A stretch of 47,075 nt of DNA from an uncultured Eubacteriales bacterium (GTDB lineage: Bacteria; Bacillota; Clostridia; Oscillospirales; CAG-272): NCBI GenBank assembly GCA_934446285.1, contig CAKSEI010000002.1:1-47075 (forward strand). The letters run 5' to 3'. Positions 5,250-27,765 of the stretch are shown here, piece by piece. The position numbers were made by a program, and so were the translations under genes. Numbering within the stretch: position 1 is the stretch's first letter; each line of letters begins with the position of its first letter. The notes under the pieces were generated by a model. That model saw nothing but the letters and a program-made list of their open reading frames with translations. It had not been told where the DNA came from and did not search any database.

Positions 5250-5285
5250 AATATAAAGAATGAATTACAACAGAGCATAAGAAAT

Positions 5286-5398
5286 TCTCCCGTGACTGAC
5301 GGAAAGCAAGCGGAAAAACCGCAGGGGAGCGGGGTTAAATATTTGGGAATTCGCAAAGCACGGCATCTGCCGCGCGGTTTCCGCCGACCGTCTGGGCA
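5286..5398 (+). promoter_or_regulatory. ZTP riboswitch (pfl motif)
   Basis: The 5' subdomain is cCCGUGACUGaCGgAaAG..GCGGAAAAACCGC..GGGGAGCG. The 3' subdomain is CGGCAUC...CCGCCGACCGuCUGGGCA. Both match the conserved cores I remember from characterized ZTP aptamers (GGGUCGUGACUGGCGAAC...GGGGAGCG and CCGCCUGGGCA). It lies directly upstream of pflB, the context that gave the motif its name. Confidence 0.85.
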
Positions 5399-5441
5399 TT
5401 ATCGCTGTTTCATAAAAAGCCGTGCAAAAGGGAGGAATACA

Positions 5442-7670
5442 ATGAAAGCATGGAAGAACTTTAATGGCGGAGATTGGGAAAGAGAAATCAACGTCCGCGA
5501 CTTTATTCAGAGAAACTATACGCCGTATGACGGCGACAGCTCCTTTCTCGCTCAGGCAACGGAGCGTACAAAGCTCTTACGCAAAGAGTTTGAGACGCTG
5601 CTCGCAAGGGAACGCGAGAACGGCGGAGTTTATAAGATAGATACCGAGACGGTCATCACCGTCACGGCTTTTGCACCCGGGTATATCGATAAGGAAAATG
5701 AGATAATCGTCGGACTTCAGACCGATGAGCCTCTAAAGCGCGCGTGCAACCCGTTCGGCGGTATGCGTATGGTGCGCGAGGCGTGCAAGCAGTACGGATA
5801 TGAGGTCTCACCGAAAATCGAGGAAGAATTCAAGTACCACAAGACGCACAACGACGGGGTTTTCTCCGCGTATACAAAGGATGTGCGCGAGGCGCGCCAC
5901 GTCGGACTCCTCACGGGACTGCCCGACGCATACGGACGCGGACGCATAATAGGCGACTACCGCAGAGTGGCTCTCTACGGCACTGACAGACTTATAGAAA
6001 AAAAACAGTGCGATAAGGACGCGCTCGGAGAAGTTCCCACGACCGAAAAGGAGATACGCTGCGCTGAGGAGCTAAGCGATCAGATAAAGGCACTGCGCGA
6101 CATGACCGCCATGGCAGCATCCTACGGCTTTGACATCAGCCGCCCGGCTGAGAACGCAAAGGAGGCGGTACAGTGGCTGTATTTCGCTTACCTCGCGGGC
6201 ATAAAGGAGCAGAACGGCGCTGCGACGAGCCTCGGACGCACGTCGACCTTCCTTGATATTTACTTTGAGAGAGATATCGCGGCGGGCGTTTTAAGTGAGA
6301 GCGAGGCACAGGAGATAATGGACGATTTCGTCCTGCATCTGCGTATGGCGCGTCATCTGAGAACGCCCGAGTACAACGAGCTTTTCGGCGGAGACCCCAT
6401 GTGGATAACCGAGGCAGTAGGCGGAGTCGGTGAGGACGGACGCCATATGGTAACAAAAAACAGCTACCGTATGCTCAATACCCTCTATAACCTTAATCCC
6501 GCCGCTGAGCCTAACCTCACCGTGCTATGGAGTGAGAAGCTGCCCCGGAGCTGGAAGAAGTTCATAGCTAAGGTCTCTATAGATACCGACGCGATACAGT
6601 ACGAGAACGACGACGTTATGCGCCCCTACTACGGCGACGATTATGCCATAGCCTGCTGCGTTTCTGCTATGCGCGTGGGCAAGGATATGCAGTTCTTCGG
6701 CGCGCGTGCGAACATTGCGAAGCTGCTTATGCTTGCGATAAACGGCGGACGCGACGAGAACAAATTTGAACAGGTTGGCCCCGAGATGCCCGTGATCGAC
6801 GGCGATGTCCTCGACTATGAGGAAGTGCTGCGCCGCCTTGACTTCTACCGCCCGTGGCTTGCAAAGACATACGTATCCGCTATGAATACCATACACTATA
6901 TGCACGACAAGTATGCGTATGAGAAGAGCCAGATGGCGCTGCACGACACTGACGTGCACAGAATGATGGCATTCGGTATCGCGGGTATGAGCTGCATGGC
7001 TGACTCTCTCTCAGCGATAAAATATGCAAAGGTAAAGCCGATACGTAATCCCGAGAACGGAATTATTACCGACTTTGAGATAGAGGGAGACTTCCCGAAA
7101 TTCGGAAACGACGACGACCGCGTTGATACAATTGCCTGCGAGCAGGTAGAGAAATTCTACGGTGCGCTTAAGCAGTTCCCGCTTTACCGCGGAGCAGAGC
7201 ACACGCTCTCGATACTTACGATAACGTCGAACGTCATGTACGGTAAAAAGACGGGCAATACCCCCGACGGCAGACACAGGGGAGAGCCGCTCGCTCCGGG
7301 CGCTAATCCCATGAGCGGACGCGACATATCGGGGGCGCTGGCATCCCTTAACTCGGTTGCAAAGCTGAGCTACGACTACTGCCGCGACGGCATATCAAAT
7401 ACATTCTCGATAACACCCGGGGCGCTCGGCGCGGATGACGGTGCGAGAGTAGAAAACCTTGTCACCATTCTCGGCGGATATTTCGCTCAGAAGGCACATC
7501 ACCTCAATGTCAATGTACTGAACAGAGAGACGCTTATCGCGGCGTATGAGCATCCCGAGCTTTATCCGAACCTTACCATCCGTGTCTCGGGATATGCGGT
7601 CAACTTCTACAAGCTGAGCCGCGAGCAGCAGCGTGAGGTTATCTCGCGCACCTTCCACGAGTCGGTTTAA
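5442..7670 (+). CDS. pflB: Pyruvate formate-lyase (formate C-acetyltransferase)
   Basis: I chose the internal start at M51 of ORF 5292..7670 (GGGAGG RBS 7 nt upstream), giving [32 protein letters not shown]. The active-site region is AIACCVSAM and the C-terminal glycyl-radical motif is [11 protein letters not shown]. Confidence 0.95.
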
Positions 7671-7697: not shown

Positions 7698-8396
7698 TTG
7701 ACGGGAAGAATACATTCCGTTCAGTCGCTCGGCGCGGTGGACGGGCCGGGAGTGAGATGCGTTGTCTTTATGCAGGGCTGTCCGCTGCGCTGCCTCTACT
7801 GTCATAATCCCGATACATGGTCGCCCGCGGGCGGTGAGGAGGTCGACACGGACGCTCTCGTGCGGCGCGTGCTGCGTTTCCGCCCTTATTGGAGCGGGGG
7901 CGGCGGCGTGACCGTCTCGGGCGGCGAGCCGCTTATGCAGGCGGATTTTACGGCGGAGTTTTTCGCCGCTCTTCATACGCACGGCGTGCATACGGCGCTT
8001 GATACTTCGGGTATGTGTGAGCCCGAGAAAGCGGAGAGGGTGCTTGAGCACACCGACCTTGTGCTCTGCGACATGAAGTTCCTTTCCGAGGAGGAATACA
8101 GGGAGAATTGCCGCGCGGATTTTCACCGCGTGCGTGAGTTTCTCGACCTTACGGCGAGGGCGGGTGTGCCCCTGTGGATACGCCATGTGGTCGTGCCCGG
8201 GCTTACCGACGGGATAGAGTACATGCGGGGAATAAAGGCGGCGGCGGAGAAGTATCCGAACTTTGAGAAGCTTGAATTCCTGCCTTTCAGAAAGTTGTGC
8301 ATAGAGAAGTACGAGCGCATGGGAATACCTTTCCCGCTGCGCGACACACCTCCGATGAGCGAGGCTCGCTTAGACGAGCTGCGCTCGCGGCTTTGA
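7698..8396 (+). CDS. pflA: Pyruvate formate-lyase activating enzyme (radical SAM)
   Basis: TTG start. The product has GPGVRCVVFMQGCPLRCLYCHNPDTW (CxxxCxxC radical-SAM cluster) and GGVTVSGGEPL. It lies immediately downstream of pflB. Confidence 0.93.
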   Translation: MTGRIHSVQSLGAVDGPGVRCVVFMQGCPLRCLYCHNPDTWSPAGGEEVDTDALVRRVLRFRPYWSGGGGVTVSGGEPLMQADFTAEFFAALHTHGVHTALDTSGMCEPEKAERVLEHTDLVLCDMKFLSEEEYRENCRADFHRVREFLDLTARAGVPLWIRHVVVPGLTDGIEYMRGIKAAAEKYPNFEKLEFLPFRKLCIEKYERMGIPFPLRDTPPMSEARLDELRSRL

Positions 8397-9323: not shown

Positions 9324-9380
9324 CCGGGATTCGGTAAGAGGAGAGCTCTCCCGATCAGCTTTTCGATAAAAGCTGACAAG

Positions 9381-9420
9381 AAAACTACTGCCGGGCTTAT
9401 TTAAGCCCGGCAGTAGTTTT
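9381..9420. terminator. Bidirectional terminator between convergent genes
   Basis: The perfect hairpin aaaactactgccgggctt/attt/aagcccggcagtagtttt has an A-run and a T-run on its two sides. It sits between the 9323 (+) and 9435 (-) gene ends. Confidence 0.8.
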
Positions 9421-9434
9421 TATATTGATTCTTT

Positions 9435-10508
9435 TCAGTCTACACTTACGTGCCAATTGCCGTAGGGGTCTTTTATTGCTCCGGACTGTATGCCGGTCAC
9501 GGTGTCGTACAGGCGCGCACTTATCTCGCCTATCTTGCCGCCGTTTATTTCCATGACCTCGTCCTCGTAGCGCAGCTTGCCTACGGGGCTGATGACTGCG
9601 GCTGTTCCGGTGCCGAAGCACTCCTCGAGCTTGCCGCTCTTCTGCGCCTCTATCAGCTCGTCAACGGAAATCTTACGCTCCTCGACCTCATAGCCCCAGT
9701 CGCGGCAGAGGGTTATTACCGAATTGCGCGTGATGCCGGGAAGTATACTGCCCGAGAGCGCGGGCGTGACTATCTTGCCGTCTATCTTAAAGAAGATATT
9801 CATGGCGCCGACTTCCTCTATGTACCTGCGCTCAACGCCGTCGAGCCACAGCACCTGAGAGAAGCCCTCGTCGTGCGCCTTGACCTGCGCGATGAGGGAT
9901 GCGGCATAGTTGCCGCCCGTCTTTGCAAAGCCGATACCGCCGCGAACCGCACGCACGTATTCGTCCTCTATCCATATGCCTACGGGAGCGAGTCCGCTCT
10001 CGTAGTATGCGCCCGAGGGCGAGAGAATGACGATAAAGAGATAGGTCGACGACGGCTTTACGCCGAGAAATTCATCGGTTGCGATAACAAAGGGGCGTAC
10101 ATAGAGTGACGTGCCGGGGTCGGTGGGAATCCAGTCCTTGTCAACCTTGACAACAGCCTTTATCGCCTGAACAAAGTCTTCCTCGGGTATCTCGGGGATG
10201 CACAGACGCCTGTTCGACGCGTTGGCGCGCTTTGCATTCATGTCCGGGCGGAAAAGATATGCGCCGCCGTCCGTACCCTTATATGCCTTGAGTCCCTCGA
10301 ACATCTCCTGTCCGTAGTGGAATACCATTGCGGCGGGAGAGAGAGAAATTCTCTCAAAGGGGACTATGCGCGCATCGTGCCAGCCCTTGCCCTCGGTATA
10401 GTTCATTACGAACATATGGTCGGTGAAAATCTTGCCGAATCCGAGAGGCGCACCCTTTTCGGGTTTCTTCTTCGGGTTGTCCGTGAGAGTTACCTTTATG
10501 TCTAACAT
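9435..10508 (-). CDS. ilvE: Branched-chain amino acid aminotransferase (class IV)
   Basis: ...FGKIFTDHMFVMNY...GLKAYKG..G...LFRP..N..R...S..RL.IP...VRPF... is a typical BCAT-II pattern. I chose the start at M9 of the listed ORF (AGGAGGA RBS 5 nt upstream), which leaves a 13-nt gap to the upstream gene. Confidence 0.9.
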   Translation of the reverse strand: MLDIKVTLTDNPKKKPEKGAPLGFGKIFTDHMFVMNYTEGKGWHDARIVPFERISLSPAAMVFHYGQEMFEGLKAYKGTDGGAYLFRPDMNAKRANASNRRLCIPEIPEEDFVQAIKAVVKVDKDWIPTDPGTSLYVRPFVIATDEFLGVKPSSTYLFIVILSPSGAYYESGLAPVGIWIEDEYVRAVRGGIGFAKTGGNYAASLIAQVKAHDEGFSQVLWLDGVERRYIEEVGAMNIFFKIDGKIVTPALSGSILPGITRNSVITLCRDWGYEVEERKISVDELIEAQKSGKLEECFGTGTAAVISPVGKLRYEDEVMEINGGKIGEISARLYDTVTGIQSGAIKDPYGNWHVSVD

Positions 10509-10521
10509 TTTTTCCTCCTGA

Positions 10522-11061
10522 TTATTTTTCATAGCTCATGCCGAGCTTTATTGCCTCAAGGTTCTTGTCAAAGAGGTCGGCGTGCTTTGCGGAGACAACC
10601 TTCTTAAGCGCCGGCTCGATAAGCTCCTCCGGCACGCAGTCGGCGTGCGCGATGAGTGCGCCCGTCATTATCATGTTCGCAAGTCCCGAGAGCTCATTCT
10701 CCGTCGCAAGCGTCGTCGCGGGTATATATACCGTCTTTACGTCCGTGCGCTCAACCTTTTTCGCTATGAGCGAGCTGTCGACGAGGATAAGTCCGCCAGC
10801 CTTTGCCGCACTCTCGTATTTCTCGAGTGAGGGCAGGTTCATAGCGACAAGGATGTCGGGAGAAGTTACTATCGGAGAGCCGACGGGGGTGTCCGAGAGA
10901 ATTACCGAGCAGTTTGCCGTGCCGCCGCGCATCTCCGGTCCGTATGAGGGCAGCCAGCTTACGTTGCGCTCACCGAGCAGCCCCGTATATGCGAGAAATT
11001 TACCGGCGAAAAGTATACCCTGTCCGCCGAAGCCCGCGATAAGTACCTGTGTAGTGCTCAT
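10522..11061 (-). CDS. 2-oxoacid:ferredoxin oxidoreductase, gamma subunit
   Basis: MSTTQVLIAGFGGQGILFAGKFLA...SYGPEMRGGTANC is the typical OFOR gamma pattern. The start overlaps the beta-subunit stop (ATGA). Confidence 0.88.
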   Translation of the reverse strand: MSTTQVLIAGFGGQGILFAGKFLAYTGLLGERNVSWLPSYGPEMRGGTANCSVILSDTPVGSPIVTSPDILVAMNLPSLEKYESAAKAGGLILVDSSLIAKKVERTDVKTVYIPATTLATENELSGLANMIMTGALIAHADCVPEELIEPALKKVVSAKHADLFDKNLEAIKLGMSYEK

Positions 11062-11810
11062 TTGCTTTCCTCCTCTGCATATTTATCCTTAAAGACACCG
11101 AGCGGGTAGTAGGGAATCATATTCTCCTCCAGCCAGTCAAGCGCGCCCTGCGGCGTTTTTCCCCAGTTGGTCGGGCAGGTCGATACGACCTCGATAAGCG
11201 AAAAGCCCTTGCCCTCCTTCTGACGGCGGAATGCCTTTTCTATAGCCTTTTTTGCGTTCCTTACGTTTTTGACATTGTTTACGGCAACACGCTCTATGTA
11301 TCCCGCACCGTCAAGAGTCGAGAGCATCTCGCATATCTTTACGGGATATCCTACGGTATTGACATCGCGTCCGTAGGGGGAGGTCTGCGTTATCTGACCG
11401 GGAAGAGAGGTGGGAGCCATCTGACCGCCGGTCATGCCGTATATTGCGTTATTTACGAATATTACCGTGATATTCTCGCCGCGTGCTGCGGAGTGAACCG
11501 TCTCGGCAGTGCCTATGGAGGCGAGGTCGCCGTCACCCTGATAGGTAAAGACTATCTTCGAGGGGTCTGCGCGCTTCACGCCCGTAGCGACAGCCGGAGC
11601 ACGTCCGTGAGCCGCCTGAACCATATCGACGTTAAAATAATTGTATGCAAAGACCGAACATCCGACGGACGCGACGCCTATCGTTTCGCCCGCGATGCCG
11701 AGGCTGTCTATCGCCTCCGCGACGAGGCGGTGAATAATACCGTGCGTGCAGCCCGGGCAATAGTGCAGGGGCGCATCGGTCAGGGCTTTCGGTTTCTCAA
11801 AGACTGTCAT
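11058..11810 (-). CDS. 2-oxoacid:ferredoxin oxidoreductase, beta (TPP-binding) subunit
   Basis: I chose the internal start at M35 (MTVFEKPKALTD). HYCPGCTHG and GDGD...GG..H..R...N....NN.IYGMTGGQ are the TPP/Fe-S beta-subunit motifs. The start overlaps the alpha stop (TGATG at 11808-11812). Confidence 0.88.
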   Translation of the reverse strand: MTVFEKPKALTDAPLHYCPGCTHGIIHRLVAEAIDSLGIAGETIGVASVGCSVFAYNYFNVDMVQAAHGRAPAVATGVKRADPSKIVFTYQGDGDLASIGTAETVHSAARGENITVIFVNNAIYGMTGGQMAPTSLPGQITQTSPYGRDVNTVGYPVKICEMLSTLDGAGYIERVAVNNVKNVRNAKKAIEKAFRRQKEGKGFSLIEVVSTCPTNWGKTPQGALDWLEENMIPYYPLGVFKDKYAEEESK

Positions 11811-12871
11811 CACTTGTCCTCCTTTGCGGCTTTTTCTATACTTGCTATAACTTCCTCGGGCGTGGGTATCATACCGCCCGTGCGGCAGCAGAGGTCGACG
11901 GGGCGCGAGCACTCTATCGCGAGGCGCACGTCCTCTATCATCTGTCCCATATTAAGCTCGACGGAGATAAATCTCTTCACGCCTGCCGCAACCTGCTTTA
12001 AGGCTTTCTCGGGGAATGGCCAGAGGGTTATCGGGCGGACAAGACCGACCTTTATACCCTTTTCGCGTGCCGCATCGACCGCATTCTTTGATACGCGGGC
12101 TGCAATGCCGAATGCGACAACGGCAATCTCCGCATCCTCGCAGCGGTAAAGCTCGCACAGCTGCTCCTTTTCCTTTACCTCATCATAGCGGGCGAAACGT
12201 ACATTGTTCCAGTCCTCAAGCTCCTGCGGCTCGAGAGCGAGGGAGTTGATTATATTCGGCTTGCGCTCTCCCTTTGTTCCCGTGAGTGCCCAGGGCTTAG
12301 GGCAGCCCTCTGCGGGCGCTTCGTCAAGGGTGACGGGCTCCATCATCTGACCCATCGTTCCGTCGGCGAGCAGCATACAGGGCATACGGTACTTCTCCGC
12401 GAGGTCAAAGCCGCGGAAGACCATGTCCGCCATCTCCTGAACCGAGTCGGGAGCGAGGACGAGCAGGTGATAGTCGCCGTGTCCGCCGCCGCGCGTCGCC
12501 TGGAAGTAGTCGGACTGAGAGGGCTGAATTCCGCCGAGACCCGGTCCGCCGCGCTGTACGTTTACGATAAGCGCAGGCAGATCACAGCCCGCCATGTAGG
12601 ATATTCCTTCGCTTTTAAGGGAAATTCCGGGGCTGGAGGAGGAGGTCATGGCACGCTTGCCCGCTGCGGCAGCGCCTATTACCATATTTATCGCGGCGAT
12701 TTCGCTCTCCGCCTGCAGGAAAGTACCGCCTATCTTGGGCATGCGCTTTGCCATGTAAGCGGCAACCTCGGTCTGCGGCGTTATCGGATATCCGAAGTAG
12801 TGGCGGCAGCCCGCGCGTATAGCTGCCTCGGCGAGGGCTTCATTGCCCTTCATCAAAACTTTTTCTGACAT
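11810..12871 (-). CDS. 2-oxoacid:ferredoxin oxidoreductase, alpha subunit (VorB/KorA type)
   Basis: MSEKVLMKGNEALAEAAIRAGCRHYFGYPITPQTE... is the canonical N-terminus of VOR/KOR-type alpha subunits. The substrate class cannot be assigned by eye. Confidence 0.88.
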   Translation of the reverse strand: MSEKVLMKGNEALAEAAIRAGCRHYFGYPITPQTEVAAYMAKRMPKIGGTFLQAESEIAAINMVIGAAAAGKRAMTSSSSPGISLKSEGISYMAGCDLPALIVNVQRGGPGLGGIQPSQSDYFQATRGGGHGDYHLLVLAPDSVQEMADMVFRGFDLAEKYRMPCMLLADGTMGQMMEPVTLDEAPAEGCPKPWALTGTKGERKPNIINSLALEPQELEDWNNVRFARYDEVKEKEQLCELYRCEDAEIAVVAFGIAARVSKNAVDAAREKGIKVGLVRPITLWPFPEKALKQVAAGVKRFISVELNMGQMIEDVRLAIECSRPVDLCCRTGGMIPTPEEVIASIEKAAKEDK

Positions 12872-12881
12872 TTCTTCCTCC

Positions 12882-13088
12882 TTATTTCTCGACGGTTATA
12901 ACGCAGTCGGGACACATCGTGGCGCAGAAAGCACATGCTATGCACTTGCTCTCATCGGTTATGTGCGCGGGGTGATGACCCTTTGGGTTAATTTCGTCTT
13001 TCGCAAGGGAAATGAGTCCCTTAGGACATGCCGTGACGCACAGTCCGCAGCCCTTGCACAGGTTTTTCTCAAATGTTACCTTTGCCAT
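12882..13088 (-). CDS. 4Fe-4S dicluster ferredoxin-like delta subunit of the OFOR
   Basis: A 68-aa product with two Cys motifs, CKGCGLCVTACP and CIACAFCATMCP. Confidence 0.88.
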   Translation of the reverse strand: MAKVTFEKNLCKGCGLCVTACPKGLISLAKDEINPKGHHPAHITDESKCIACAFCATMCPDCVITVEK

Positions 13089-13100
13089 TTTATATCTCCT

Positions 13101-13739
13101 TTACCAAATGGTTTTTTGCAGAGTAAGAGCAAGCTCGTTTTTTCGGGCGATGCCGCTTTCCGCGCATGTAAAGCGCAGCGGCAGCCCGCTCTCTTCACAG
13201 AGGTGCTCTATCTTTTCCTTCGAGCGGTCTAAGTCCGAGCGAACCGTGTCTTTACCGAGATTTGTATTGTTGACTATGCCCGTAAAGGGTATGCCGCACG
13301 CCGCTTCTATCTCGCGCATGACTCCGAGAGCCTCCTCGGGCGTGCGCGTGAGCGGGCGCATGAAATTGCATACAAAGAGCATATCGTAGTCGCCCTCCGC
13401 GATTATCGCGGGAGTGAGTCTGCCGAGCGCGAGCGCGCCTCTGTCGTCTCCTCCTACGTCGACGACGGCGAATCTGTCCGTCTCGTCCGTCACGCGGTAC
13501 ATGTCACCGGGGAGAGCGGGAGTGTCGACATTCGTATTCGCATAGTCTGAGGCGACAAGCTCTATGCCCTCCTGCCGCAAAAGGTCGCCGGAATCCTTTG
13601 AGCGGTAGTACGGATTTACTATATCGAGGTCAAAGAGCGTTACTGCCTTTCCCTCGCGGCGCAGGCGCACGGCGTAGTTTATCGCTATATTCGTTTTTCC
13701 GCTGCCGTAGTGACCGCAGAAAAGCGTTATTCTGCTCAT
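13101..13739 (-). CDS. P-loop NTPase (MinD/ParA/CobQ-like fold), function unknown
   Basis: The deviant Walker A is FCGHYGSGKTNIAINYA and the Walker B-like segment is FAVVDVGGDD. It is tightly packed between the synthetase (13-nt gap) and the OFOR delta gene (12-nt gap). Confidence 0.75.
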   Translation of the reverse strand: MSRITLFCGHYGSGKTNIAINYAVRLRREGKAVTLFDLDIVNPYYRSKDSGDLLRQEGIELVASDYANTNVDTPALPGDMYRVTDETDRFAVVDVGGDDRGALALGRLTPAIIAEGDYDMLFVCNFMRPLTRTPEEALGVMREIEAACGIPFTGIVNNTNLGKDTVRSDLDRSKEKIEHLCEESGLPLRFTCAESGIARKNELALTLQKTIW

Positions 13740-13752
13740 TTTATCTCCGTTC

Positions 13753-16038
13753 TCACAGCTTCGCGCGTATTATCTTGCCCGAGGTGGTCTTGGGCAGCTC
13801 GTCGCGGAATACGACGATTCGCGGATATTTATACGGCGCGGTGTGCTCCTTTACGTAGTTCTGTATTTCCTTCTTAAGCTCTTCCGTGCCTTCCGTGCCC
13901 TTTGTAAGCACGATGCTCGCCTTGACGACCTGTCCGCGAATCTCGTCGGGTGCGGCGGAGACTCCGCATTCAAGCACGTAGGGCAGCTCCATTATGACAT
14001 TCTCTATCTCGAAAGGCCCTATGCGGTAGCCCGAGCTCTTTATAACGTCGTCTATGCGGCTGACGTACCAGTAGTAGCCGTCCTCATCCTTATATGCGAC
14101 GTCTCCCGTGTGATATATGCCACCTGCGAAAACCTCATCGGTCTTTTCCTTATTGCGGTAATACTCGGTGACAAGTCCGCAGGGGTGACCGCGGTCGAGC
14201 TTTACGCATATTTCGCCGGGAGTACCGACGGGAACGGGATTGCCCTCCGTGTCGAAAATGTCTATGTCATACGACGCTACGGGCTTGCCCATAGAGCCGA
14301 GACGCGGGGTCATGCCGACGGTGTTCGCAATAAGCACGGTCGACTCGGACTGGCCGAAGCCCTCCATTATCGTAAGGCCCGTTGCCTCCTTAAATCTGCG
14401 GAATACCTCGGGATTGAGCGCCTCGCCCGCCGTCGTCATATGCTTGACGGACGAGAGGTCGAAACGCGAGATATCCTCCTTTATCATCATACGCAGCATG
14501 GTTGGCGGTGCGCAGAAGGTCGTGATACCGTATTTTGCAAACATCGGGAGAATGTCCGAGGCGTGGAAACGGTCGAAATCATAGACGAAAAGCGGCGCCT
14601 CACACAGCCACTGACCGTAGAGCTTACCCCACATGGACTTAGCCCAGCCCGTGTCCGAGATGGTGAGATGAAGTCCGTTCGGGTCGACCCTGTGCCAATA
14701 TTTTGCGGTGACAAAGTGACCTAACGGGTATTTGTACGAATGAACGGCAATCTTCGGATAGCCCGACGTGCCCGAGGTGAAGAACATGAGCATCTTATCG
14801 TCTCCGCACGGGCTGTCCGGCGTGCGCTCAAAGTGGCTCGAATATACCGAATACTCCTCCTCAAAGCTGCGCCAGCCGTCCTTTTTCCCGCCTACGGTTA
14901 TCTTTGTTACAAGCGACGGGCTTGTTGCCTCCGCTATATCAACCTCGTCGGTTATCCCGCCTACTGCAGTGCACATTACGGCGGATATTCCCGCGCTGTT
15001 TATGCGGTACTCAATGTCGTGCGAGAGCAGCTGATTGGGTGCTAATATCGCTATCGCGCCTATCTTGTGCAGGGCGTTTATTATGTACCAGAATTCATAG
15101 TGACGGCGCAGGATGAGCATTACTCTGTCTCCGCGTTTTATGCCTATGCTTTTAAAGTAATTTGCCGCTCGACTCGATTCCTTTTTCACCATGCCGAAGG
15201 TTATGCGCTTTTCCTCTCCCGTGCGGGATATGTGAAGAAGAGCGGTCTTATCGGGGCATTTGTCACCGAGCGCGTCAACTACGTCAAAGGCAAAGTTGAA
15301 TTTGTCTTCATTCTTATATTCTATCGATGCGAGGCTGCCGTCCTGGTTTTCGTGCGGGATGATAAAATTCTCGTACACTCTCTCCTGATTGTCACTCTCG
15401 GGCTTTGACTGCTTCTCCTCCTCATGCGCTCTGTGCGCTATGTAGTCGGTCGGGTTGAGGACGACTGCGTAAAACTCGCAGTCCTCGCCGTCCACGGCTA
15501 TCATGCCGTGAGGTGTGGACGAGTCGTAGTATATCGTGTCGCCCACGCCGAGAATTTCCGAGTGAGTGCCGACCTGAACCTTGAGATGTCCGCTTATTAC
15601 AAGGTCAAATTCCTGACCCTCGTGGGTGGTCAGCGGGATGTCGCGCGTCTGCGCCTCCTCGGAGTACTCCGCGCGGACGTAAAGCGGTTCGGCGATACGG
15701 TCACGGTAGGATGACGCCATATTGAAGTAGGTCATGCCGTGTGCCTTTTCTATCTTCTGACCCGCACCCGCACGCGTCAGCTCATATGCGGTAAGCGTCG
15801 GGGAGCTTCCCTGAATTATGTCGGTGACGTCCACTCTGAAAGCAAGCGCACAGCGGTAGAGAAAAGCAAAGTTGAGGTCGCGCCCGCCCGACTCGCACGC
15901 GTTGTATTCGTCCTCGGAGACGCCGACCTTTTCCGCCATCTCCGCAGGGGAGAGACCTTCTATCGTGCGCAGCTCGTGAATTCGGGCAGCCATCTCGCGT
16001 ATCGTAAGGTCAAGTCCGGTAGTAAGTTTTTCTTCCAT
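13753..16038 (-). CDS. Fusion protein: XRE-type HTH + cupin + AMP-forming medium-chain-type acyl-CoA synthetase (paralog 1)
   Basis: The N-terminal HTH is LSPAEMAEKVGVSEDEYNACESG. The cupin is GQEFDLVISGHLKVQVG...GDTIYYDSSTPHGM. The AMP-binding core is MLMFFTSGTSGYPK, TTAGEALNPEV and YHTGDVAYKDEDGYYWYVSRIDDVIKSSGYRIGPFEIE...TSGKI, which resembles the ACSM/MACS family. GGAGGA RBS. Confidence 0.88.
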   Translation of the reverse strand: MEEKLTTGLDLTIREMAARIHELRTIEGLSPAEMAEKVGVSEDEYNACESGGRDLNFAFLYRCALAFRVDVTDIIQGSSPTLTAYELTRAGAGQKIEKAHGMTYFNMASSYRDRIAEPLYVRAEYSEEAQTRDIPLTTHEGQEFDLVISGHLKVQVGTHSEILGVGDTIYYDSSTPHGMIAVDGEDCEFYAVVLNPTDYIAHRAHEEEKQSKPESDNQERVYENFIIPHENQDGSLASIEYKNEDKFNFAFDVVDALGDKCPDKTALLHISRTGEEKRITFGMVKKESSRAANYFKSIGIKRGDRVMLILRRHYEFWYIINALHKIGAIAILAPNQLLSHDIEYRINSAGISAVMCTAVGGITDEVDIAEATSPSLVTKITVGGKKDGWRSFEEEYSVYSSHFERTPDSPCGDDKMLMFFTSGTSGYPKIAVHSYKYPLGHFVTAKYWHRVDPNGLHLTISDTGWAKSMWGKLYGQWLCEAPLFVYDFDRFHASDILPMFAKYGITTFCAPPTMLRMMIKEDISRFDLSSVKHMTTAGEALNPEVFRRFKEATGLTIMEGFGQSESTVLIANTVGMTPRLGSMGKPVASYDIDIFDTEGNPVPVGTPGEICVKLDRGHPCGLVTEYYRNKEKTDEVFAGGIYHTGDVAYKDEDGYYWYVSRIDDVIKSSGYRIGPFEIENVIMELPYVLECGVSAAPDEIRGQVVKASIVLTKGTEGTEELKKEIQNYVKEHTAPYKYPRIVVFRDELPKTTSGKIIRAKL

Positions 16039-16067
16039 TATTTTTTCCTCCGCTTACTTCCCCGGGG

Positions 16068-16337
16068 CAGGAAAAACAAAAAACGCCCCAAAGAATACTG
16101 ATTCTTTGAGACGAGAAAACCTCCCGCGGTACCACTCAAATTGCGCTTTGCGCCACTCACGCTCAAACAAGCGTTATGCCTTTACGCGGCAAAACGGGAA
16201 AGGTCTACTCACCTGCGGCTTTCTTCTTTCCGACTCGGAAGCTACCGGCGTTATGCCTCGGACAAACGGCTCTCACCATCCGCCGTCTCTCTGTGCGTCC
16301 GTAAAACACGCGCCCTCTTCGTCACAGTCTTTATTTA
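16068..16337 (-). promoter_or_regulatory. T-box riboswitch leader 1 (Stem I, T-box antiterminator, intrinsic terminator)
   Basis: Reading the minus strand: K-turn GAC-UGU-GA-C-GAAG...CUUC-C-GA-GUC, AG bulge AGAGAG, distal loop GGAUGGUGAGA and T-box core UUUGAGUGGUACCGCGGGA (plus 16123-16138). A terminator hairpin CUCAAAGAAU/cagu/AUUCUUUGGGG plus a U-run follows, about 30 nt before the ATG. Confidence 0.85.
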
Positions 16338-16343
16338 CTCAGT

Positions 16344-16372
16344 ATTCTACCACATCGTATATGACTTGTCAA
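16344..16372 (-). promoter_or_regulatory. Sigma-A promoter for T-box 1
   Basis: On the minus strand: TTGACA (16372-16367), a 17-nt spacer and an extended -10 TGgTAGAAT (16349-16344). Confidence 0.7.
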
Positions 16373-16409
16373 GTGCTTTTTATGCAGAAAAAGGATTTTT
16401 TTGCATAAA

Positions 16410-16446
16410 AGTCGGGGCGGCGGCAGCCCGCCGCCCGCTTTTTTTC
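16410..16446. terminator. GC-rich hairpin terminator after paralog 2
   Basis: The 9-bp G/C stem cggggcggcgg/cagc/ccgccgcccg is flanked by an A-run and a T-run. On the minus strand it is followed by ACUUUUAU. Confidence 0.6.
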
Positions 16447-16447
16447 C

Positions 16448-18712
16448 TTAAAGCTTGTTTCTCTGTATTTTGCCCGAGATGGTCTTGGGCAGCTCGTCGC
16501 GGAATACGACGATACGCGGATACTTGTAGGGAGCGGTATGGCTCTTTACATAATCCTGTATCTCTTTCTTAAGCTCCTCCGTTCCCTCGGTGCCCTTGGT
16601 AAGCACGATGCTCGCCTTGACGACCTGACCGCGTATCTCGTCGGGTGCGGCGGAGACTCCGCATTCAAGCACGTAGGGCAGCTCCATTATGACGTTCTCT
16701 ATCTCGAAAGGCCCTATGCGGTAGCCCGAGCTCTTTATAACGTCATCGACGCGTCCGACGTACCAGTAGTAGCCATCCTCATCCTTCCACGCAGTGTCGC
16801 CCGTGTGGTAGAGTCCGTCGTGCCATACCTCGGCGGTCTTTTCCGGCTGACCGTAGTAGCCCTTGAAGAGTCCGCAGGGAACTTTCTCCGAGGTGCGCAC
16901 GCATATCTCACCCGTCTCACCTACGGGCACGCTGTTGCCGTCGGGGTCGACTATATCTACGTCGTAGAGCGGAGAGGGCTTGCCCATTGAACCTATGCGC
17001 GGCGTGTCTCCGTAGAAGTTTCCTATCGTGAGGGTTGTCTCGGTCTGACCGAAGCCCTCCATTATCGTAAGTCCCGTCGCCTCGCGGAAGAGCCTGAACA
17101 CCTCGGGGTTGAGCGCTTCGCCCGCCGTCGTCATATGATGAATGCTTGAGAGGTCGTACTTTGATATATCCTCGCGGATGAGCATACGCAGCATGGTGGG
17201 CGGCGCACAGAAGGTCGTGATACCGTATTTCGCAAAGAGCGGCAGTATGTCATGCGCGTCAAAGCGGTTGAAGTCGTATACAAATACCGCGCCCTCGCAC
17301 ATCCACTGACCGTAGAATTTACCCCAAAGAGCTTTACCCCAGCCGGTATCGGATATGGTGAGATGAACGCCGTCGCGCTCGCAGCAGTGCCAGTATTTCG
17401 CGGTTAAGAAGTGACCGAGCGCATATTTGTGCGAATGGGCTGCAATCTTCGGATATCCCGTCGTGCCCGAGGTGAAGAACATGAGCGCGGTGTCGTCGCC
17501 GCATGCGCTGTCCTCCGTTCGCTCAAAGTGGCTCGAGAAGAGCGGGCACTCGGAGTGATAGTCGTGCCAGCCCTCGCGGTGTCCGCCGACGAGAACCTTT
17601 GTCAGAGTCTTTGCGAGATTCTTCTCCGCCTCCTCGACGCTCTCACACGCGCTGCCGTGAGATGAACATACGATAGCGGATACCCCGCCCGCTTCAAAGC
17701 GGTATTCGTAGTCGTGAGTGAGCAGCTGGTCTGTGGCGGGAATCGCAACCGCACCCAGTTTATGCAGGGCGAGCATACTCGTCCAGAATTCAAAGCGGCG
17801 GCGCAGCACGAGCATAACCCTGTCGCCCTTGCTTATACCGAGGCTCTTATAGTAGTTTGCCGTCTGATTTGACAGGCGCTTCATGTCGGAAAAGGTAAAT
17901 CTGCGCTCGTTTTTATCCTCGTCGAGATGAATCATTGCGAGCTTGTCGGGATAAGCATTTGCCACTGCGTCGACGGTATCGAAAGCAAAGTTGTATTTAT
18001 CCTCATTCTCAAAGGAAATGCCCGTGACCTTCCCGTCTGCGTCCTCCGTGCAGTGTACGAATTTCTCGCAGAGCAGACTGCTGCTCTCGCGTGCGCGCAC
18101 GAGGGTGCGGCTTATCTCCTCCTCGGGCGCTTCCTCACCCGTCAGGACAAGAGCGATGAATGTGCAGTCTCTGCCGTTGACGGCTATCATGCCGTGGGGC
18201 GTGCCCGAATCGTATATGATCGAGTCGCCCTCGTGCAGTACCTCGGTATGATCACCCACACGCACCTTCATAGAGCCGGAGAGTATATAGTCGAACTCCT
18301 GACCCGAATGGGTGTCGGTATGTATCGGCTTGTGCTGCTGCTCCTCGGAATATTCATATTTTACGAGATAAGGCTCGGCGAGCTTACCGCGAAAGCGGGG
18401 AGCAAGGTTTTTTATGAGTATCCCGTCGTCGTCGACCGTCGTCTGTCCCGCTCCTCCGCGCGTTACCTGATAGTGGCGCAGCATGGGGCTGCGCCCCTCG
18501 AGCAGCTCTATCATATCGACGTCAAAGGCGAGCGCGCAGTTATGTATGAAAGAGAACGGCAAATCGACCGTACCCGCCTCATATGCGCGGTATTCCTCAA
18601 GCGGAAAGCCCGCAGCCTCGGCTGCCTGCTCCTCGCTCATACCGAGAACTCCGCGCAGCTCTCTTATACGTGCGCTGACCTCGGTAAGCTTGGTTTCAAC
18701 ATTTGAATTCAT
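16448..18712 (-). CDS. Fusion protein: XRE-type HTH + cupin + AMP-forming medium-chain-type acyl-CoA synthetase (paralog 2)
   Basis: I chose the internal start at M41 of the listed ORF (MNSNVETKL..., GGAGGA RBS), because the upstream 40 codons overlap the T-box terminator. The architecture matches paralog 1: HTH MSEEQAAEAAGFPLEEYRAYEAG, cupin GQEFDYILSGSMKVRVG...GDSIIYDSGTPHGM, and AMP-binding motifs ALMFFTSGTTGYPK and YHTGDTAWKDEDGYYWYVGRVDDVIKSSGYRIGPFEIE. Confidence 0.88.
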   Translation of the reverse strand: MNSNVETKLTEVSARIRELRGVLGMSEEQAAEAAGFPLEEYRAYEAGTVDLPFSFIHNCALAFDVDMIELLEGRSPMLRHYQVTRGGAGQTTVDDDGILIKNLAPRFRGKLAEPYLVKYEYSEEQQHKPIHTDTHSGQEFDYILSGSMKVRVGDHTEVLHEGDSIIYDSGTPHGMIAVNGRDCTFIALVLTGEEAPEEEISRTLVRARESSSLLCEKFVHCTEDADGKVTGISFENEDKYNFAFDTVDAVANAYPDKLAMIHLDEDKNERRFTFSDMKRLSNQTANYYKSLGISKGDRVMLVLRRRFEFWTSMLALHKLGAVAIPATDQLLTHDYEYRFEAGGVSAIVCSSHGSACESVEEAEKNLAKTLTKVLVGGHREGWHDYHSECPLFSSHFERTEDSACGDDTALMFFTSGTTGYPKIAAHSHKYALGHFLTAKYWHCCERDGVHLTISDTGWGKALWGKFYGQWMCEGAVFVYDFNRFDAHDILPLFAKYGITTFCAPPTMLRMLIREDISKYDLSSIHHMTTAGEALNPEVFRLFREATGLTIMEGFGQTETTLTIGNFYGDTPRIGSMGKPSPLYDVDIVDPDGNSVPVGETGEICVRTSEKVPCGLFKGYYGQPEKTAEVWHDGLYHTGDTAWKDEDGYYWYVGRVDDVIKSSGYRIGPFEIENVIMELPYVLECGVSAAPDEIRGQVVKASIVLTKGTEGTEELKKEIQDYVKSHTAPYKYPRIVVFRDELPKTISGKIQRNKL

Positions 18713-18734
18713 AGCATCCTCCGTTTTTACGACG

Positions 18735-18990
18735 GGAAAAAACAAAAAATCCCGTCTCAAAATTTCTTTGAGACGGGATATATTCCCGCGGTACCACTCA
18801 AATTGCGCCATGCGCCACTCACGCTCAATCAAGCGTTATGCCTTTACGCGGCAGTCACGAAACCGACTACTGTGTTTCACCGGTTCAGCTCGGAAGGGAT
18901 GGGCTTCGGGATGGCTCTGCGTGCTCACACCGTCCGCACGCTCTCTGTAAGAGGTTATGTCCCCCGCCGTCTTCGTCACAGCTTTTATCA
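18735..18990 (-). promoter_or_regulatory. T-box riboswitch leader 2
   Basis: Reading the minus strand: K-turn AGC-UGU-GA-C-GAAG...CUUC-C-GA-GCU, AG bulge AGAGAG, distal loop GGACGGUGUGA and T-box core UUUGAGUGGUACCGCGGGA (plus 18785-18800). The terminator is CCCGUCUCAAAGAAAUUUUGAGACGGG plus AUUUUUUGUUUUUU. Confidence 0.88.
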
Positions 18991-18997
18991 TGTGCAG

Positions 18998-19026
18998 ATT
19001 ATATCACCGCACGTGGAGTTTGTCAA
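18998..19026 (-). promoter_or_regulatory. Sigma-A promoter for T-box 2
   Basis: On the minus strand: TTGACA (19026-19021), a 17-nt spacer and TATAAT (19003-18998). It lies 10 nt downstream of the dxs stop. Confidence 0.75.
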
Positions 19027-19035
19027 TAGCTTTTT

Positions 19036-20859
19036 TTAAAATTTTTCGCCTTTTTTCTCCCTTACCGTGCGCAGTATGCTTGACGCATCTATGCCGCACG
19101 TCTCGTAGTAGCTCCTGCCCTCTTCACCCTCGGCAAAGCCGTCTATAGCGAGCACGTCAGGGTCTTTGTCGCGGAAAAATTCGCTCAGCACCATTCCCGC
19201 GCCGCCCTCGCGTACTCCCTCCTCGACAAAGACAAGCCGCCTAACGCCCTCGGGCAGCAGAGAGCGTATTCCGCGCGCGCATTCGGCATACGGCGAGAGC
19301 TTCTCAAGGAGAATAACACCGAAGTCCTCTTCTCTGCGCGCAGCCTCGACCTCGCGGACTATCCTGCCGTAGGTTATCACGGCGCAAGTGCAGTCCCGAG
19401 GCAGGTAATATCTCATGTTCTTACCGCGCAGATAACCCTGCGGCACGAACTCTCCGCAGTTCGGGTAGCGTATCACGTTAACCCCGTGGGAGCAGCAGAC
19501 GGTGTCCATTGCCTCTCTTAGGAAGTCAAAGTCGGCGGGTGCGTATATCGCCACGCCCGGTACCGTATTTAAGAGCGCGACGTCGTATATTCCGTGGTGG
19601 GTCGCCCCGTCCCCGCAGGCGAGCGCCGCTCTGTCTACGCACAGCGTCACGTCAAGGCCCTGCAGCGCCGCGTCGTGCAGTATATTGTCATATGCTCTCT
19701 GAAGAAATGTCGAATATACGGCGAAAAACGGCTTCATGCCGTCTGCGGCAAGCCCCGCGGCAAAGGTGACGGCGTGTCCCTCGGCAATACCCACGTCAAA
19801 GAAACGGTCGGGAAATCTCTTTCTGAAAGGAATTAACCCCGTGCCGTCCGCCATGGCGGCGGTTATTGCGCAGATATTGCCGTGCTCCTCCGCCATATCG
19901 CAGAGATGCAGCCCCATCTGCTCGGAGAAATTGTCTATCGCCGGGCTGCCCGCGGCGGGTATGCCGTGAAAGAGCGCCGGGTGCTCCTCGGCGGGAGCAT
20001 AGCCCATGCCCTTTTTCGTCTTTACGTGTACGAGCGTCGCCTGACCCGTGAGCTTTGCCTCACGCAGTATTCTCTCAAGCTTTACCGTGTCGTTCCCGTC
20101 GACGGGTCCGAGATAGGTAAGCCCTAACTGCTCGAAATAATTCGCGCCGTATACGGCGTTTTTCACTATTCTTTTTATAAAAGAAACCCCGTTATAAAGC
20201 TTCTTTCCCACGTACGGGATATGTAAGAGAAAGCTCGCTATCTGCCTTTTTGCCTTATAATAGCTCTTTGACGCGCGCAGTCTGTTCATCTGCCGCGCGA
20301 AAGCACCCGTATTGCGCGAGATTGACATTTCGTTTTCGTTCAGGATTATTACGAGATTGAGCTTCTTCTTACAGTTGTTGAGCGCCTCGTGTACAAGCCC
20401 GCCCGTATACGCGCCGTCGCCAACCACCGCGACGGTAAAAGCGTCCGAGCCTCTCAGCCTGTCCGCCTCGGCAAAGCCGAGTGCCGCCGACACGGATGTG
20501 GAGGCATGTCCCGCACCGAAAGGGTCGTGCTCGCTCTCCGAGCGCTTGGTAAAGCCGGAAAGTCCGCCCGGCGTGCGCAGAGTGCCGAAAAGCTCTCTGC
20601 GCCCCGTGAGCAGCTTGTGCACGTAGCTCTGATGTCCGACGTCAAAAATTATATGGTCGCGCGGAGAGTCGAAAACACGGTGCACGGCGAGGGTAAGCTC
20701 GACCGCGCCGAGATTGGATGCGAGATGTCCGCCGGTACGAGAGACGCTGCGGCAGAGATAATCGCGTATCTCGTCCGCAAGCGGCAAAAGGCTCTCCTGC
20801 GGGAGAGCCTTAAGATCGTCAGGTGAATTTACATGCGGTAATAATTTATATTCCATCAA
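19036..20859 (-). CDS. dxs: 1-deoxy-D-xylulose-5-phosphate synthase
   Basis: RTGGHLASNLGAVELTLAVHRVFDSPRDHIIFDVGHQSYVHKLLTGRR, the TPP motif VVGDGAYTGG and FDVGIAEGHAVTFAAGLA. Confidence 0.93.
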   Translation of the reverse strand: MMEYKLLPHVNSPDDLKALPQESLLPLADEIRDYLCRSVSRTGGHLASNLGAVELTLAVHRVFDSPRDHIIFDVGHQSYVHKLLTGRRELFGTLRTPGGLSGFTKRSESEHDPFGAGHASTSVSAALGFAEADRLRGSDAFTVAVVGDGAYTGGLVHEALNNCKKKLNLVIILNENEMSISRNTGAFARQMNRLRASKSYYKAKRQIASFLLHIPYVGKKLYNGVSFIKRIVKNAVYGANYFEQLGLTYLGPVDGNDTVKLERILREAKLTGQATLVHVKTKKGMGYAPAEEHPALFHGIPAAGSPAIDNFSEQMGLHLCDMAEEHGNICAITAAMADGTGLIPFRKRFPDRFFDVGIAEGHAVTFAAGLAADGMKPFFAVYSTFLQRAYDNILHDAALQGLDVTLCVDRAALACGDGATHHGIYDVALLNTVPGVAIYAPADFDFLREAMDTVCCSHGVNVIRYPNCGEFVPQGYLRGKNMRYYLPRDCTCAVITYGRIVREVEAARREEDFGVILLEKLSPYAECARGIRSLLPEGVRRLVFVEEGVREGGAGMVLSEFFRDKDPDVLAIDGFAEGEEGRSYYETCGIDASSILRTVREKKGEKF

Positions 20860-21353
20860 AGCTTAGATTTTATCTCTCGTATGCCGCGTTCTATCGCACA
20901 CAGCACGAAGGCGCACGAAAGCGAGAAAGCAACACCTACCGCGCCGAAGATTATGCACAGCAGCTGCGACATGACAGCTCCTCTGAAATACCACCACGCA
21001 CCGACAAAAGCAAGCACCATAAAGACAAATGATAATATCATCGAGGACACGGTAAGTACGGTCGTCCATACGGGAGCTTTTTCGACGGGGGACTGCGGCC
21101 TCTCAAGGGCGTGTCTTAACTCGTCAATGGTTATCGCCTGCTGCTTCGGCTGCGCCTTCGCTGTCTGCGGCGCGCGCCCGGCTGTGCTCTGCGGCTTTTC
21201 ATTTTCGCTCTGCTTAGTCTGAGTCGGGTGCATACCGGGAGCCTCGTGACGCGGCGTCATGGGCGCGGATTTTTTCGCACCGGGCGCTGAGGGTATGCTC
21301 GAGAAGAGCGCGTCTATGGGGTTGTCCGTCTTGTTCCTGTTTTCTTCAGCCAT
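20856..21353 (-). CDS. Hypothetical membrane protein (disordered N-terminus, two C-terminal TM helices)
   Basis: I chose the internal start at M25 (MAEENRNK, GAGGT RBS). A Pro/Gln/Ala/Lys-rich segment is followed by WTTVLTVSSMILSFVFMVLAFVGAWWY and LLCIIFGAVGVAFSLSCAFVLCAI. The stop overlaps the dxs start (ATGA). Confidence 0.55.
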   Translation of the reverse strand: MAEENRNKTDNPIDALFSSIPSAPGAKKSAPMTPRHEAPGMHPTQTKQSENEKPQSTAGRAPQTAKAQPKQQAITIDELRHALERPQSPVEKAPVWTTVLTVSSMILSFVFMVLAFVGAWWYFRGAVMSQLLCIIFGAVGVAFSLSCAFVLCAIERGIREIKSKL

Positions 21354-21438
21354 TTTTCTACCTCGCTTTCCTATATTATATAGGATTTGCCCGCCCGTGT
21401 CAACTGATTTGATAAAATACGGCAAATTTCGGGCGCAT

Positions 21439-27589: not shown

Positions 27590-27654
27590 TCCGATTAAGG
27601 ATTTTTCCGTCCTGCCCGGTGCGCGAATATACGCATATTGACCCACACTTTTAA

Positions 27655-27765
27655 AAGAGGAGTCCGCGTTCCCGTTCGGGTTTGCAGACCTCCCCGCAAG
27701 GGATGCTGGGAGCACAAGGTCCGGGATAGGACACCAACCTGCACATGCAGGGTTTTAATAGCGTA
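27655..27765 (+). ncRNA. Candidate structured RNA or leader segment (unclassified)
   Basis: There are five consecutive short hairpins: cccg-uuc-ggg, cccc-GCAA-ggg (GNRA loop), ugc-uggga-gca, gucc-gggaua-ggac and ccugc-acau-gcagg. The strand and the RNA class are not established. Confidence 0.25.

Follow-up and report, generated by a model that had tools for sequence, protein, structure and literature searches.

A candidate T-box-gated route from branched short-chain fatty acids to isoleucine and valine in uncultured gut Clostridia

We analysed a 47,075-nt stretch of DNA from an uncultured Eubacteriales bacterium of the Oscillospirales (GenBank assembly GCA_934446285.1, contig CAKSEI010000002.1), hereafter the window, and describe a locus in which two paralogous acyl-CoA synthetases, ACS-A and ACS-B, each lie behind a T-box leader of their own. 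The second synthetase is followed by the genes of a four-subunit 2-oxoacid:ferredoxin oxidoreductase (OFOR) and of an IlvE aminotransferase, an arrangement that points to a probable route from branched short-chain fatty acids (SCFAs) to isoleucine and valine gated by tRNA charging. Coordinates are positions in the window, and every element of the operon is on the minus strand.

ACS-A (18712-16448, 754 aa) combines, according to Pfam, an XRE-type helix-turn-helix (HTH) domain, Cupin_2, AMP-binding and AMP-binding_C, and ACS-B (16038-13753, 761 aa) has the same architecture (HTH_31/HTH_3, Cupin_2, AMP-binding and AMP-binding_C); the two proteins are 60% identical. Tightly packed after ACS-B come a P-loop protein of 212 aa (13739-13101), assigned to the SIMIBI-class NTPases from weak CbiA/ParA matches and a fold search, the OFOR subunits delta, alpha, beta and gamma (VorD/A/B/G), and IlvE. 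The delta subunit is a 68-aa 2x[4Fe-4S] ferredoxin (13088-12882), alpha a 353-aa POR_N and PFOR_II protein matched by the VorB-type model NF005507 (12871-11810), beta a 250-aa thiamine pyrophosphate-binding protein with a TPP_enzyme_C domain (11810-11058), gamma a 179-aa POR-domain protein (11061-10522) and IlvE a 357-aa class IV aminotransferase matched by NF009897 and TIGR01123 (10508-9435). The beta start overlaps the alpha stop codon (TGATG), and a ribosome-binding site, AGGAGG, precedes the IlvE start (10508) by 7 nt. Identical contigs from human gut metagenomes, Hadza samples included, carry the same gene set in independent public gene calls.

A preliminary description of this DNA, made from the sequence alone, had placed all of these elements on the minus strand, and its positions were borne out exactly or within a few bases. 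The gaps of about 10-13 nt and overlaps of 1-4 nt that it listed between ACS-B and ilvE are as it gave them; its list correctly spanned the P-loop gene at 13739-13101 but left that gene unnamed. It had further proposed tandem T-boxes, with a second promoter, T-box and paralogous synthetase upstream of the operon. These upstream elements are present, and there are indeed two T-boxes, but they are not in tandem: they are separate leaders with their own promoters and a whole gene between them.

Leader A (18988-18766) is preceded by a promoter with TTGACA-17-TATAAT and a TG extension (19026-18998, 12/12 hexamer matches), and leader B (16334-16104) by one with TTGACA-17-TAGAAT and a TG extension (16372-16344, 11/12 hexamer matches). 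Both promoters are of the near-consensus extended -10 type, and they are the sole strong promoter-like sites in the 9.8-kb region. The T-box family RF00230 matched both leaders, as had been predicted: leader A at full length with 95.0 bits (E=1.1e-19) in a whole-window Rfam scan, in which it was the one T-box above the gathering score of 93, and leader B over the full length of the model (1-219) with 77.6 bits (E=5e-17) in a permissive scan of 15900-16600.

Both leaders carry Stem I, a basal GA/K-turn motif, an AGAGA bulge and a GGUGNRA distal loop, and the specifier codon lies immediately 5' of the closing helix of the specifier loop. They also share the conserved T-box sequence GAGUGGUACCGCG and the antiterminator bulge UGGUACC. 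An intrinsic terminator with a 14-bp stem and TTTTTGTTTT closes T-box A (18779-18749), and one with a 13-bp stem and TTTTTTGTTT closes T-box B (16113-16084); in both, the 5' arm of the terminator, CCCGUCUCAAAG, is also the 3' arm of the antiterminator. By these features the two leaders are genuine transcription-attenuating T-boxes of classical design, with a terminator and an antiterminator that are mutually exclusive. The UGGU bulge would pair with the A73 discriminator, which is common to the Ile, Val and Leu tRNAs.

Relatives of the locus were taken from species-representative genomes as the best 80 of at least 596 matching genome stretches, with 64-75% protein identity. Almost all are metagenome-assembled genomes (MAGs) of gut or rumen Clostridia (Acutalibacteraceae, Oscillospiraceae, Christensenellaceae, Ruminococcus). 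Each of their synthetases was assigned to class A or class B by its better tblastn match to the two paralogs of the window, and the specifier was read as a column in a MAFFT alignment of 129 leaders. The T-box core motif was found upstream of 49/49 A-type and 75/77 B-type synthetase genes with enough upstream sequence; it has GAGTGG in these leaders, so that the pattern GGTGG[TA]ACC[GA]CG misses them. The Stem I motifs and the position of the specifier next to the closing helix recur in the 129 aligned leaders, almost all of which also have a strong terminator that shares the antiterminator arm, and an automated re-scan detected no terminator in L020_B and L067_B.

The hairpin scan returned two further structures. 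A 19-bp hairpin at 9380-9421, in the convergent intergenic region 3' of IlvE, is likely a bidirectional terminator at the end of the operon. A GC-rich hairpin with a weak U-tract lies 3' of ACS-A (16436-16415) and is possibly a partial terminator; it is not conserved, since promoter B abuts the ACS-A stop codon in many relatives.

We then compared the specifiers. The unpaired bases 5' of the closing helix in the Rfam alignment are AUC followed by C in leader A (codon AUC, Ile, at 18900-18898) and GUA followed by G in leader B (codon GUA, Val, at 16245-16243). Among the relatives the specifier was ATC in 50/50 A-type leaders, and in B-type leaders it was GTA in 74/77, GTC in 2/77 and CTG in 1/77. 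B-type leaders have a purine directly after the specifier in 77/77 cases; in A-type leaders this base is A or C. The 4-bp closing helix, which fixes the codon register, pairs in 123/124 leaders and shows compensatory variants (GAAG/CUUC to GGAG/CUCC, GAAA/UUUC, GGAA/UUCC, GAGG/CCUC and GGGG/CCCC). Overall, the paralog class assigned from the protein agrees with the specifier read from the RNA in 126/127 readable leaders. The upstream paralog would thus be gated by tRNA-Ile, and the downstream one, along with the remaining genes of the operon, by tRNA-Val, a pairing that appears invariant across dozens of species. AUC, GUA and CUC are the canonical specifiers of ileS, valS and leuS in Bacilli.

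The one exception, L068 (about 9780-9990), has a B-type leader with CTG (Leu?) in the specifier column, in the context GATCTGGTTTTCGAG. The enzyme encoded behind it nevertheless agrees with the B class at each of the 13 positions that discriminate the two classes (see below), Ala466 included. The CTG probably reflects a local ambiguity of alignment register, the alternative being a real change of specifier.

The window itself contains adjacent tRNA-Thr(UGU) and tRNA-Tyr(GUA) genes (42630-42789, minus strand), and no tRNA-Ile or tRNA-Val gene was found in its 47,075 nt.

Within the window the two paralogous units are more alike at their 3' parts than elsewhere. The 3' 90 nt of the two T-boxes (16102-16191 and 18764-18853) are 91% identical, and the last 300 nt of the synthetase genes (13771-14070 and 16466-16765) are 90% identical, compared with about 70% elsewhere, suggesting gene conversion between the paralogous units in this lineage.

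All four predicted domains were found in both synthetases, with E=1e-68 and 1e-58 for PF00501 and E~1e-21 for PF13193. The best NCBIfam model for both was MbcS (NF047394, 447 and 421 bits). The best relative of solved structure was Macs of Methanosarcina acetivorans (3ETC, E=2.2e-170), with Salmonella Acs at 1e-47. Macs prefers 2-methylbutyrate and adenylates C3-C8 acids (PMC10455477). In an alignment with E. coli Acs, the acyl-pocket residues V310/T311/V386/W414 correspond to [G or A]/K/A/G in the window enzymes, and the Trp equivalent to Macs Trp259 is kept. Replacement of the acetate-gating Trp by Gly is a signature of medium-chain enzymes with an enlarged acyl pocket (PMC10455477). The preliminary description had named acetate-specific synthetases as an outcome that would overturn its model; with Gly in place of Trp414, and with the MbcS model and Macs as best relatives, that concern no longer applies.

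In a comparison of 50 A-type with 73 B-type enzymes, 13 positions were class-discriminating, being at least 90% conserved within each class and different between the two. A single one falls in the catalytic domain of about 550 residues: ACS-B residue 466, in the motif DTGW[G/A]K, which aligns with the acyl-pocket Val310 of E. coli Acs. All A-type enzymes (100%) have Gly at this position and all B-type enzymes (100%) have Ala, while Macs (3ETC) has Gly; in the window the residues are Gly459 of ACS-A (17338-17336) and Ala466 of ACS-B (14643-14641). Gly, which leaves the larger pocket, thus goes with the Ile switch, and Ala, which leaves a pocket one methyl smaller, with the Val switch, and from this we infer a C5 acid for the former and a C4 acid for the latter. 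RNA specifier and pocket residue covary independently, in a direction that fits 2-methylbutyrate versus isobutyrate. On the T-box specifier and the pocket residue, ACS-A would be a 2-methylbutyrate-CoA ligase and ACS-B an isobutyrate-CoA ligase.

The other 12 of the 13 discriminating residues lie in the C-terminus of the HTH, the linker and the start of the cupin (ACS-B residues 13-119, about 16002-15682), suggesting that the HTH-cupin module has a branch-specific function such as ligand sensing. Its best profile match in the PDB was 1Y9Q (E=2.3e-7), other matches being generic XRE proteins. An AlphaFold2 (AF2) model built from a 10-sequence alignment had a predicted local distance difference test (pLDDT) score of 54 and was confident for the HTH alone. 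One-component regulators of the 1Y9Q type have the same two-domain architecture of XRE-HTH and cupin, whereas the module of the window is fused to an enzyme.

We considered autoregulation by the HTH through a conserved operator, and it was unsupported: no conserved inverted repeat or operator was found in the ~125 nt upstream of 127 related leaders, that is, near their promoters. The window has an inverted repeat, TTTTATGCA-N15-TGCATAAAA, just upstream of the -35 element of promoter B (about 16412-16380, minus strand). It is particular to the window and is not conserved in 77 related B-type promoters, which makes it an unlikely candidate for an operator of the whole family.

Bacteroidota encode the HTH-cupin module in a gene of its own (184 aa; 34% identity, E=2e-39), directly upstream of a Macs-like synthetase that is 51% identical and has DTGWGK, as in stretches L083 (8355-10572, Bacteroides finegoldii) and L084 (8350-10572, Parabacteroides distasonis). 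This split pair indicates that the fusion in Clostridia joins partners that are encoded by adjacent genes elsewhere. No OFOR was found beside the Bacteroidota pair, whose neighbours are proC, or proB-proA and arg genes. A branched-chain amino acid (BCAA) route for these homologs thus found no support; adjoining proline and arginine genes rather than an OFOR, they may belong to a different pathway.

The OFOR has the four-subunit form, with POR_N and PFOR_II in alpha, TPP_enzyme_C in beta, POR in gamma and 2x[4Fe-4S] in delta. Its class had been left between VOR, KOR, IOR and PFOR. The alpha subunit passes the VorB model NF005507 with 551 bits against a cutoff of 399, but falls short of the KOR, PFOR and IOR models and of those for archaeal VOR (e.g., NF006232, 89 bits against 646); its best PDB match was 1YD7. 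The poor scores with archaeal VOR models place the window OFOR in a distinct bacterial clade. IlvE passes both cutoffs for branched-chain aminotransferases (BCATs), with 499 bits against 307 for NF009897 and 413 against 250 for TIGR01123.

The P-loop protein has the Walker A motif GHYGSGKT and weak CbiA/ParA matches only in Pfam, and a sequence search returned no specific relative in the PDB. Its AF2 model reached a pLDDT of 86.6, and the nearest folds were the ATPase-type HypB and the signal recognition particle (SRP) GTPases Ffh/FtsY, with template modelling (TM) scores of 0.5-0.65; on this model, the protein is predicted to be a SIMIBI-class NTPase. The family comprises at least 8000 proteins, annotated as 'ParA family' or hypothetical. 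By analogy with HypB, CooC and Mrp-type chaperones, it is possibly a maturation factor for the cofactors or clusters of the OFOR.

To see how far the gene set recurs, as the preliminary description had suggested checking, we counted as informative the 52 loci with at least 5.5 kb of flank downstream of the last synthetase. The whole cluster (P-loop gene, VorDABG and IlvE) was present in 42/52, all of it but IlvE in 2/52 and none of these genes in 8/52; in a further 19 loci, where less flank was available, the beginning of the cluster is visible. The P-loop gene always lies between the synthetase (or IlvE) and VorD, and in some relatives IlvE lies between ACS-B and the P-loop gene.

A third T-box, with the specifier CUC (Leu) and 111-123 bits against RF00230, was seen beside the ACS/VOR cluster in 32/80 related loci (L020 at 16663-21681; also L002, L009, L011, L022, L024, L026, L029, L032, L037, L046, L071 and others). 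The genes behind it encode a LeuA-like protein (HMGL-like and LeuA_dimer, 464 aa), an 834-aa protein in which a xylose-isomerase-like TIM barrel is fused to an AMP-binding enzyme, and an Amidohydro_2 protein. This operon is absent from the window.

Taken together, we read the locus as a T-box-gated route from branched SCFAs to isoleucine and valine, with a probability of roughly three in four. The earlier proposal of a tRNA-sensed reductive carboxylation is thereby supported by the T-boxes, the domain content, the VorB-type alpha subunit, the BCAT, the recurrence of the cluster and the specifiers; we infer from sequence how the leaders respond to tRNA, which acids serve as substrates, that the OFOR works reductively, and what the P-loop protein and the HTH-cupin module do. 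In the proposed mechanism, an uncharged tRNA would base-pair with its leader at two sites, through its anticodon at the Stem I specifier and through its free NCCA end at the UGGU bulge, which would stabilise the antiterminator over the terminator and let RNA polymerase read on. Leader A would sense tRNA-Ile (AUC) and switch on ACS-A; leader B would sense tRNA-Val (GUA) and switch on ACS-B together with the SIMIBI NTPase, the four OFOR subunits and IlvE. The AMP-forming, committing step would convert 2-methylbutyrate to 2-methylbutyryl-CoA (ACS-A) and isobutyrate to isobutyryl-CoA (ACS-B). The VOR-type OFOR would then join the acyl-CoA with CO2, at the expense of reduced ferredoxin, to give 2-oxo-3-methylvalerate or 2-oxoisovalerate, and IlvE would transaminate the former to isoleucine and the latter to valine. 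Expression under amino-acid shortage, as expected of a T-box, and AMP-forming ligases that run towards the thioester argue for this biosynthetic direction.

Several observations weigh against this reading. The 80 loci are the closest relatives and not a random sample of the family. Leader B scores below the Rfam gathering score, so that its membership in the T-box family rests on its Stem I and antiterminator features, and the synthetase leaders of L002, L020, L026 and L068 all miss that score as well, while the Leu T-boxes in L002, L020 and L026 do reach it; as most synthetase leaders fall below it, routine Rfam annotation misses the regulon. About half of the A-type leaders have C, rather than the usual purine, directly after the Ile codon. 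Both synthetases score far under the MbcS equivalog cutoff of 850 and are thus not MbcS orthologs. The beta, gamma and delta subunits of the OFOR pass no curated model, their best matches being generic or KOR-type and far below cutoff, and the name 'VorB' of NF005507 may rest on annotation rather than assay. The 8/52 loci lacking the cluster are stand-alone units of a Val T-box and a synthetase without an adjacent OFOR; they keep the Ala pocket and are followed by unrelated genes. Finally, VOR and IlvE sit behind the Val T-box only. The preliminary description was right to place a T-box in front of the operon, but this Val-only gating had escaped it. Transcripts from leader A still meet the terminator of leader B, and a shortage of Ile alone would not evidently raise the OFOR and IlvE on which the Ile branch depends as well; these may come from basal readthrough or, for the OFOR, from a second copy elsewhere.

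Three other explanations have to be set against the route from branched acids. One keeps the Val arm unchanged and derives isoleucine from propionate: ACS-A would make propionyl-CoA, the OFOR 2-oxobutyrate and the ordinary ilv enzymes isoleucine, a sequence from propionate through 2-oxobutyrate that has been seen by labelling in some anaerobes. An Ile T-box fits any isoleucine precursor equally, OFORs are often promiscuous, and the ACS-A transcription unit is separate from the OFOR. The adenylation of C3-C8 acids by Macs (PMC10455477) is also in line with it. We nevertheless regard it as unlikely, because a smaller pocket would be expected of a propionate enzyme, but it is the Ile-linked paralog that has the larger Gly pocket, as in the 2-methylbutyrate-preferring Macs, and the Val-linked one that has Ala; IlvE in the operon, moreover, fits direct transamination of the carboxylation product. 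Alternatively, the synthetases could mainly supply branched acyl-CoA primers for branched-chain fatty acid (BCFA) synthesis, with low BCAA charging serving as the signal to scavenge external acids. The best NCBIfam match is MbcS, and there is a precedent in Staphylococcus aureus, whose MbcS lets external 2-methylbutyrate and isobutyrate be used for making BCFAs (PMC10026030, PMC11167679); some loci, too, carry a T-box and synthetase alone. Against this, the synthetase is co-transcribed with OFOR and BCAT in 42/52 informative loci, both needless for making primers, and if run oxidatively the two would break down precisely the amino acid whose scarcity switches them on. Having one switch for Ile and another for Val makes most sense if the products are isoleucine and valine, and we hold the supply of primers to be quite improbable as the main function.

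The third possibility is a catabolic or fermentative operon in which IlvE would convert BCAAs to 2-oxoacids and VOR would convert these to acyl-CoA, the synthetases being ancillary and the leaders non-functional or responding in some other way. Annotations usually label such OFORs as oxidative 'dehydrogenases', and gut Clostridia do form branched SCFAs from BCAAs (bioRxiv 10.1101/401489). T-boxes, however, induce on uncharged tRNA, that is, under amino-acid shortage, and on the catabolic reading the cell would destroy valine just when its tRNA-Val is uncharged. AMP-forming ligases are effectively irreversible towards acyl-CoA and would waste ATP in a fermentative exit, which normally uses a phosphotransacylase and a kinase, or an ADP-forming synthetase. 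With the leader terminators and antiterminators intact and the specifiers kept across dozens of species, we consider a catabolic operon very unlikely.

Beyond the T-box-gated route to isoleucine and valine, a wider and more tentative interpretation, which we think rather doubtful as a whole, would join all of these elements into one system. It would comprise an unrecognised T-box regulon in hundreds of gut and rumen Clostridia species, through which tRNA charging would gate the flow of branched acids into protein synthesis. The identity of each branch would be coded twice, by the RNA specifier (AUC or GUA) and by the single Gly/Ala switch in the pocket. The HTH-cupin module would be a second, branch-specific ligand sensor acting by feedback or feed-forward on the synthetase or on transcription, and the SIMIBI NTPase a dedicated maturation or activation factor for an OFOR working in the synthase direction. 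The neighbouring Leu T-box operon may be the leucine arm of the same system.

Several components have well-known counterparts. T-box biosynthesis operons, such as the B. subtilis ilv-leu operon with its Leu T-box and those for trp, his, ser and cys genes and for transporters, use the same RNA family and logic, and the usual Ile, Val and Leu specifiers AUC, GUA and CUC of T-box amino-acid operons are also those of the window-type leaders and their relatives. The targets differ: instead of aminoacyl-tRNA synthetases, transporters or the acetolactate pathway, the T-boxes of the window precede genes for an acyl-CoA synthetase, a transaminase and a ferredoxin-dependent 2-oxoacid synthase, which together would salvage external fatty acids. 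Macs (3ETC) and MbcS have the ANL fold in common with the window enzymes, and Macs also shares the Gly at the Acs-Trp position, the Trp259 equivalent and, with ACS-A, the Gly at the Acs-Val310 position. In contrast to Macs and MbcS, the window enzymes add an N-terminal XRE-HTH and cupin module of ~200 aa and come as a Gly/Ala pair tied to different T-boxes; we know of no role of Macs or MbcS in feeding amino-acid synthesis.

The branched-acid growth requirements of rumen and gut anaerobes and the carboxylation route to Val, Ile and Leu have been known for ~60 years. Allison, Bryant and Robinson reportedly showed by labelling, in the 1960s-70s, the reductive carboxylation of isobutyrate, 2-methylbutyrate and isovalerate in such organisms; to our knowledge this classical work assigned neither genes nor regulation. 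The chemistry of VOR and of this pathway is the one predicted from the window genes, with an OFOR of the same four-subunit alpha/beta/gamma/delta form, and the habitat is that of the window relatives, namely human gut and ruminant MAGs. Unlike known VOR systems, the window cluster has a P-loop NTPase gene of its own.

Taken singly, the parts are familiar, namely T-boxes, Macs-type ligases, OFORs and the pathway defined by labelling; what appears to be new is their combination: T-box-controlled synthetases with an OFOR, an Ile/Val pair with a Gly/Ala switch, the fused HTH-cupin module and the P-loop gene. A 2008 survey of T-box regulons by Wels never mentions CoA or oxidoreductase targets (PMC2494555). 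The preliminary description had been unaware of an acyl-CoA synthetase in a T-box regulon; likewise, we found no report linking a T-box to an acyl-CoA synthetase or an OFOR in the searchable literature, subscription literature being outside this coverage. The locus would provide a complete and conserved candidate gene set and a starvation signal for branched-acid carboxylation, neither of them previously assigned in that literature, with the T-box specifiers assigning each synthetase paralog to one amino acid. It would also add acyl-CoA synthetases and ferredoxin-dependent 2-oxoacid synthases to the targets of T-boxes, offer directional evidence for an enzyme class usually annotated as catabolic, and predict that a single residue, Gly or Ala at the position of Acs Val310, switches specificity. 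The findings bear on branched-SCFA cross-feeding and on the BCAA economy of the human gut and rumen, where the organisms concerned are uncultured ones of Oscillospirales and Christensenellales type.

Elsewhere in the window, a ZMP/ZTP riboswitch (RF01750, 48.4 bits) was found on the plus strand at 5282-5404, directly upstream of a pyruvate formate-lyase gene (5292-7670, plus strand), which is followed by a radical-SAM activase (7698-8396, plus strand) in the classic 'pfl motif' arrangement with this riboswitch. A 6S RNA (RF00013, 51.8 bits) lies at 27606-27788, also on the plus strand.

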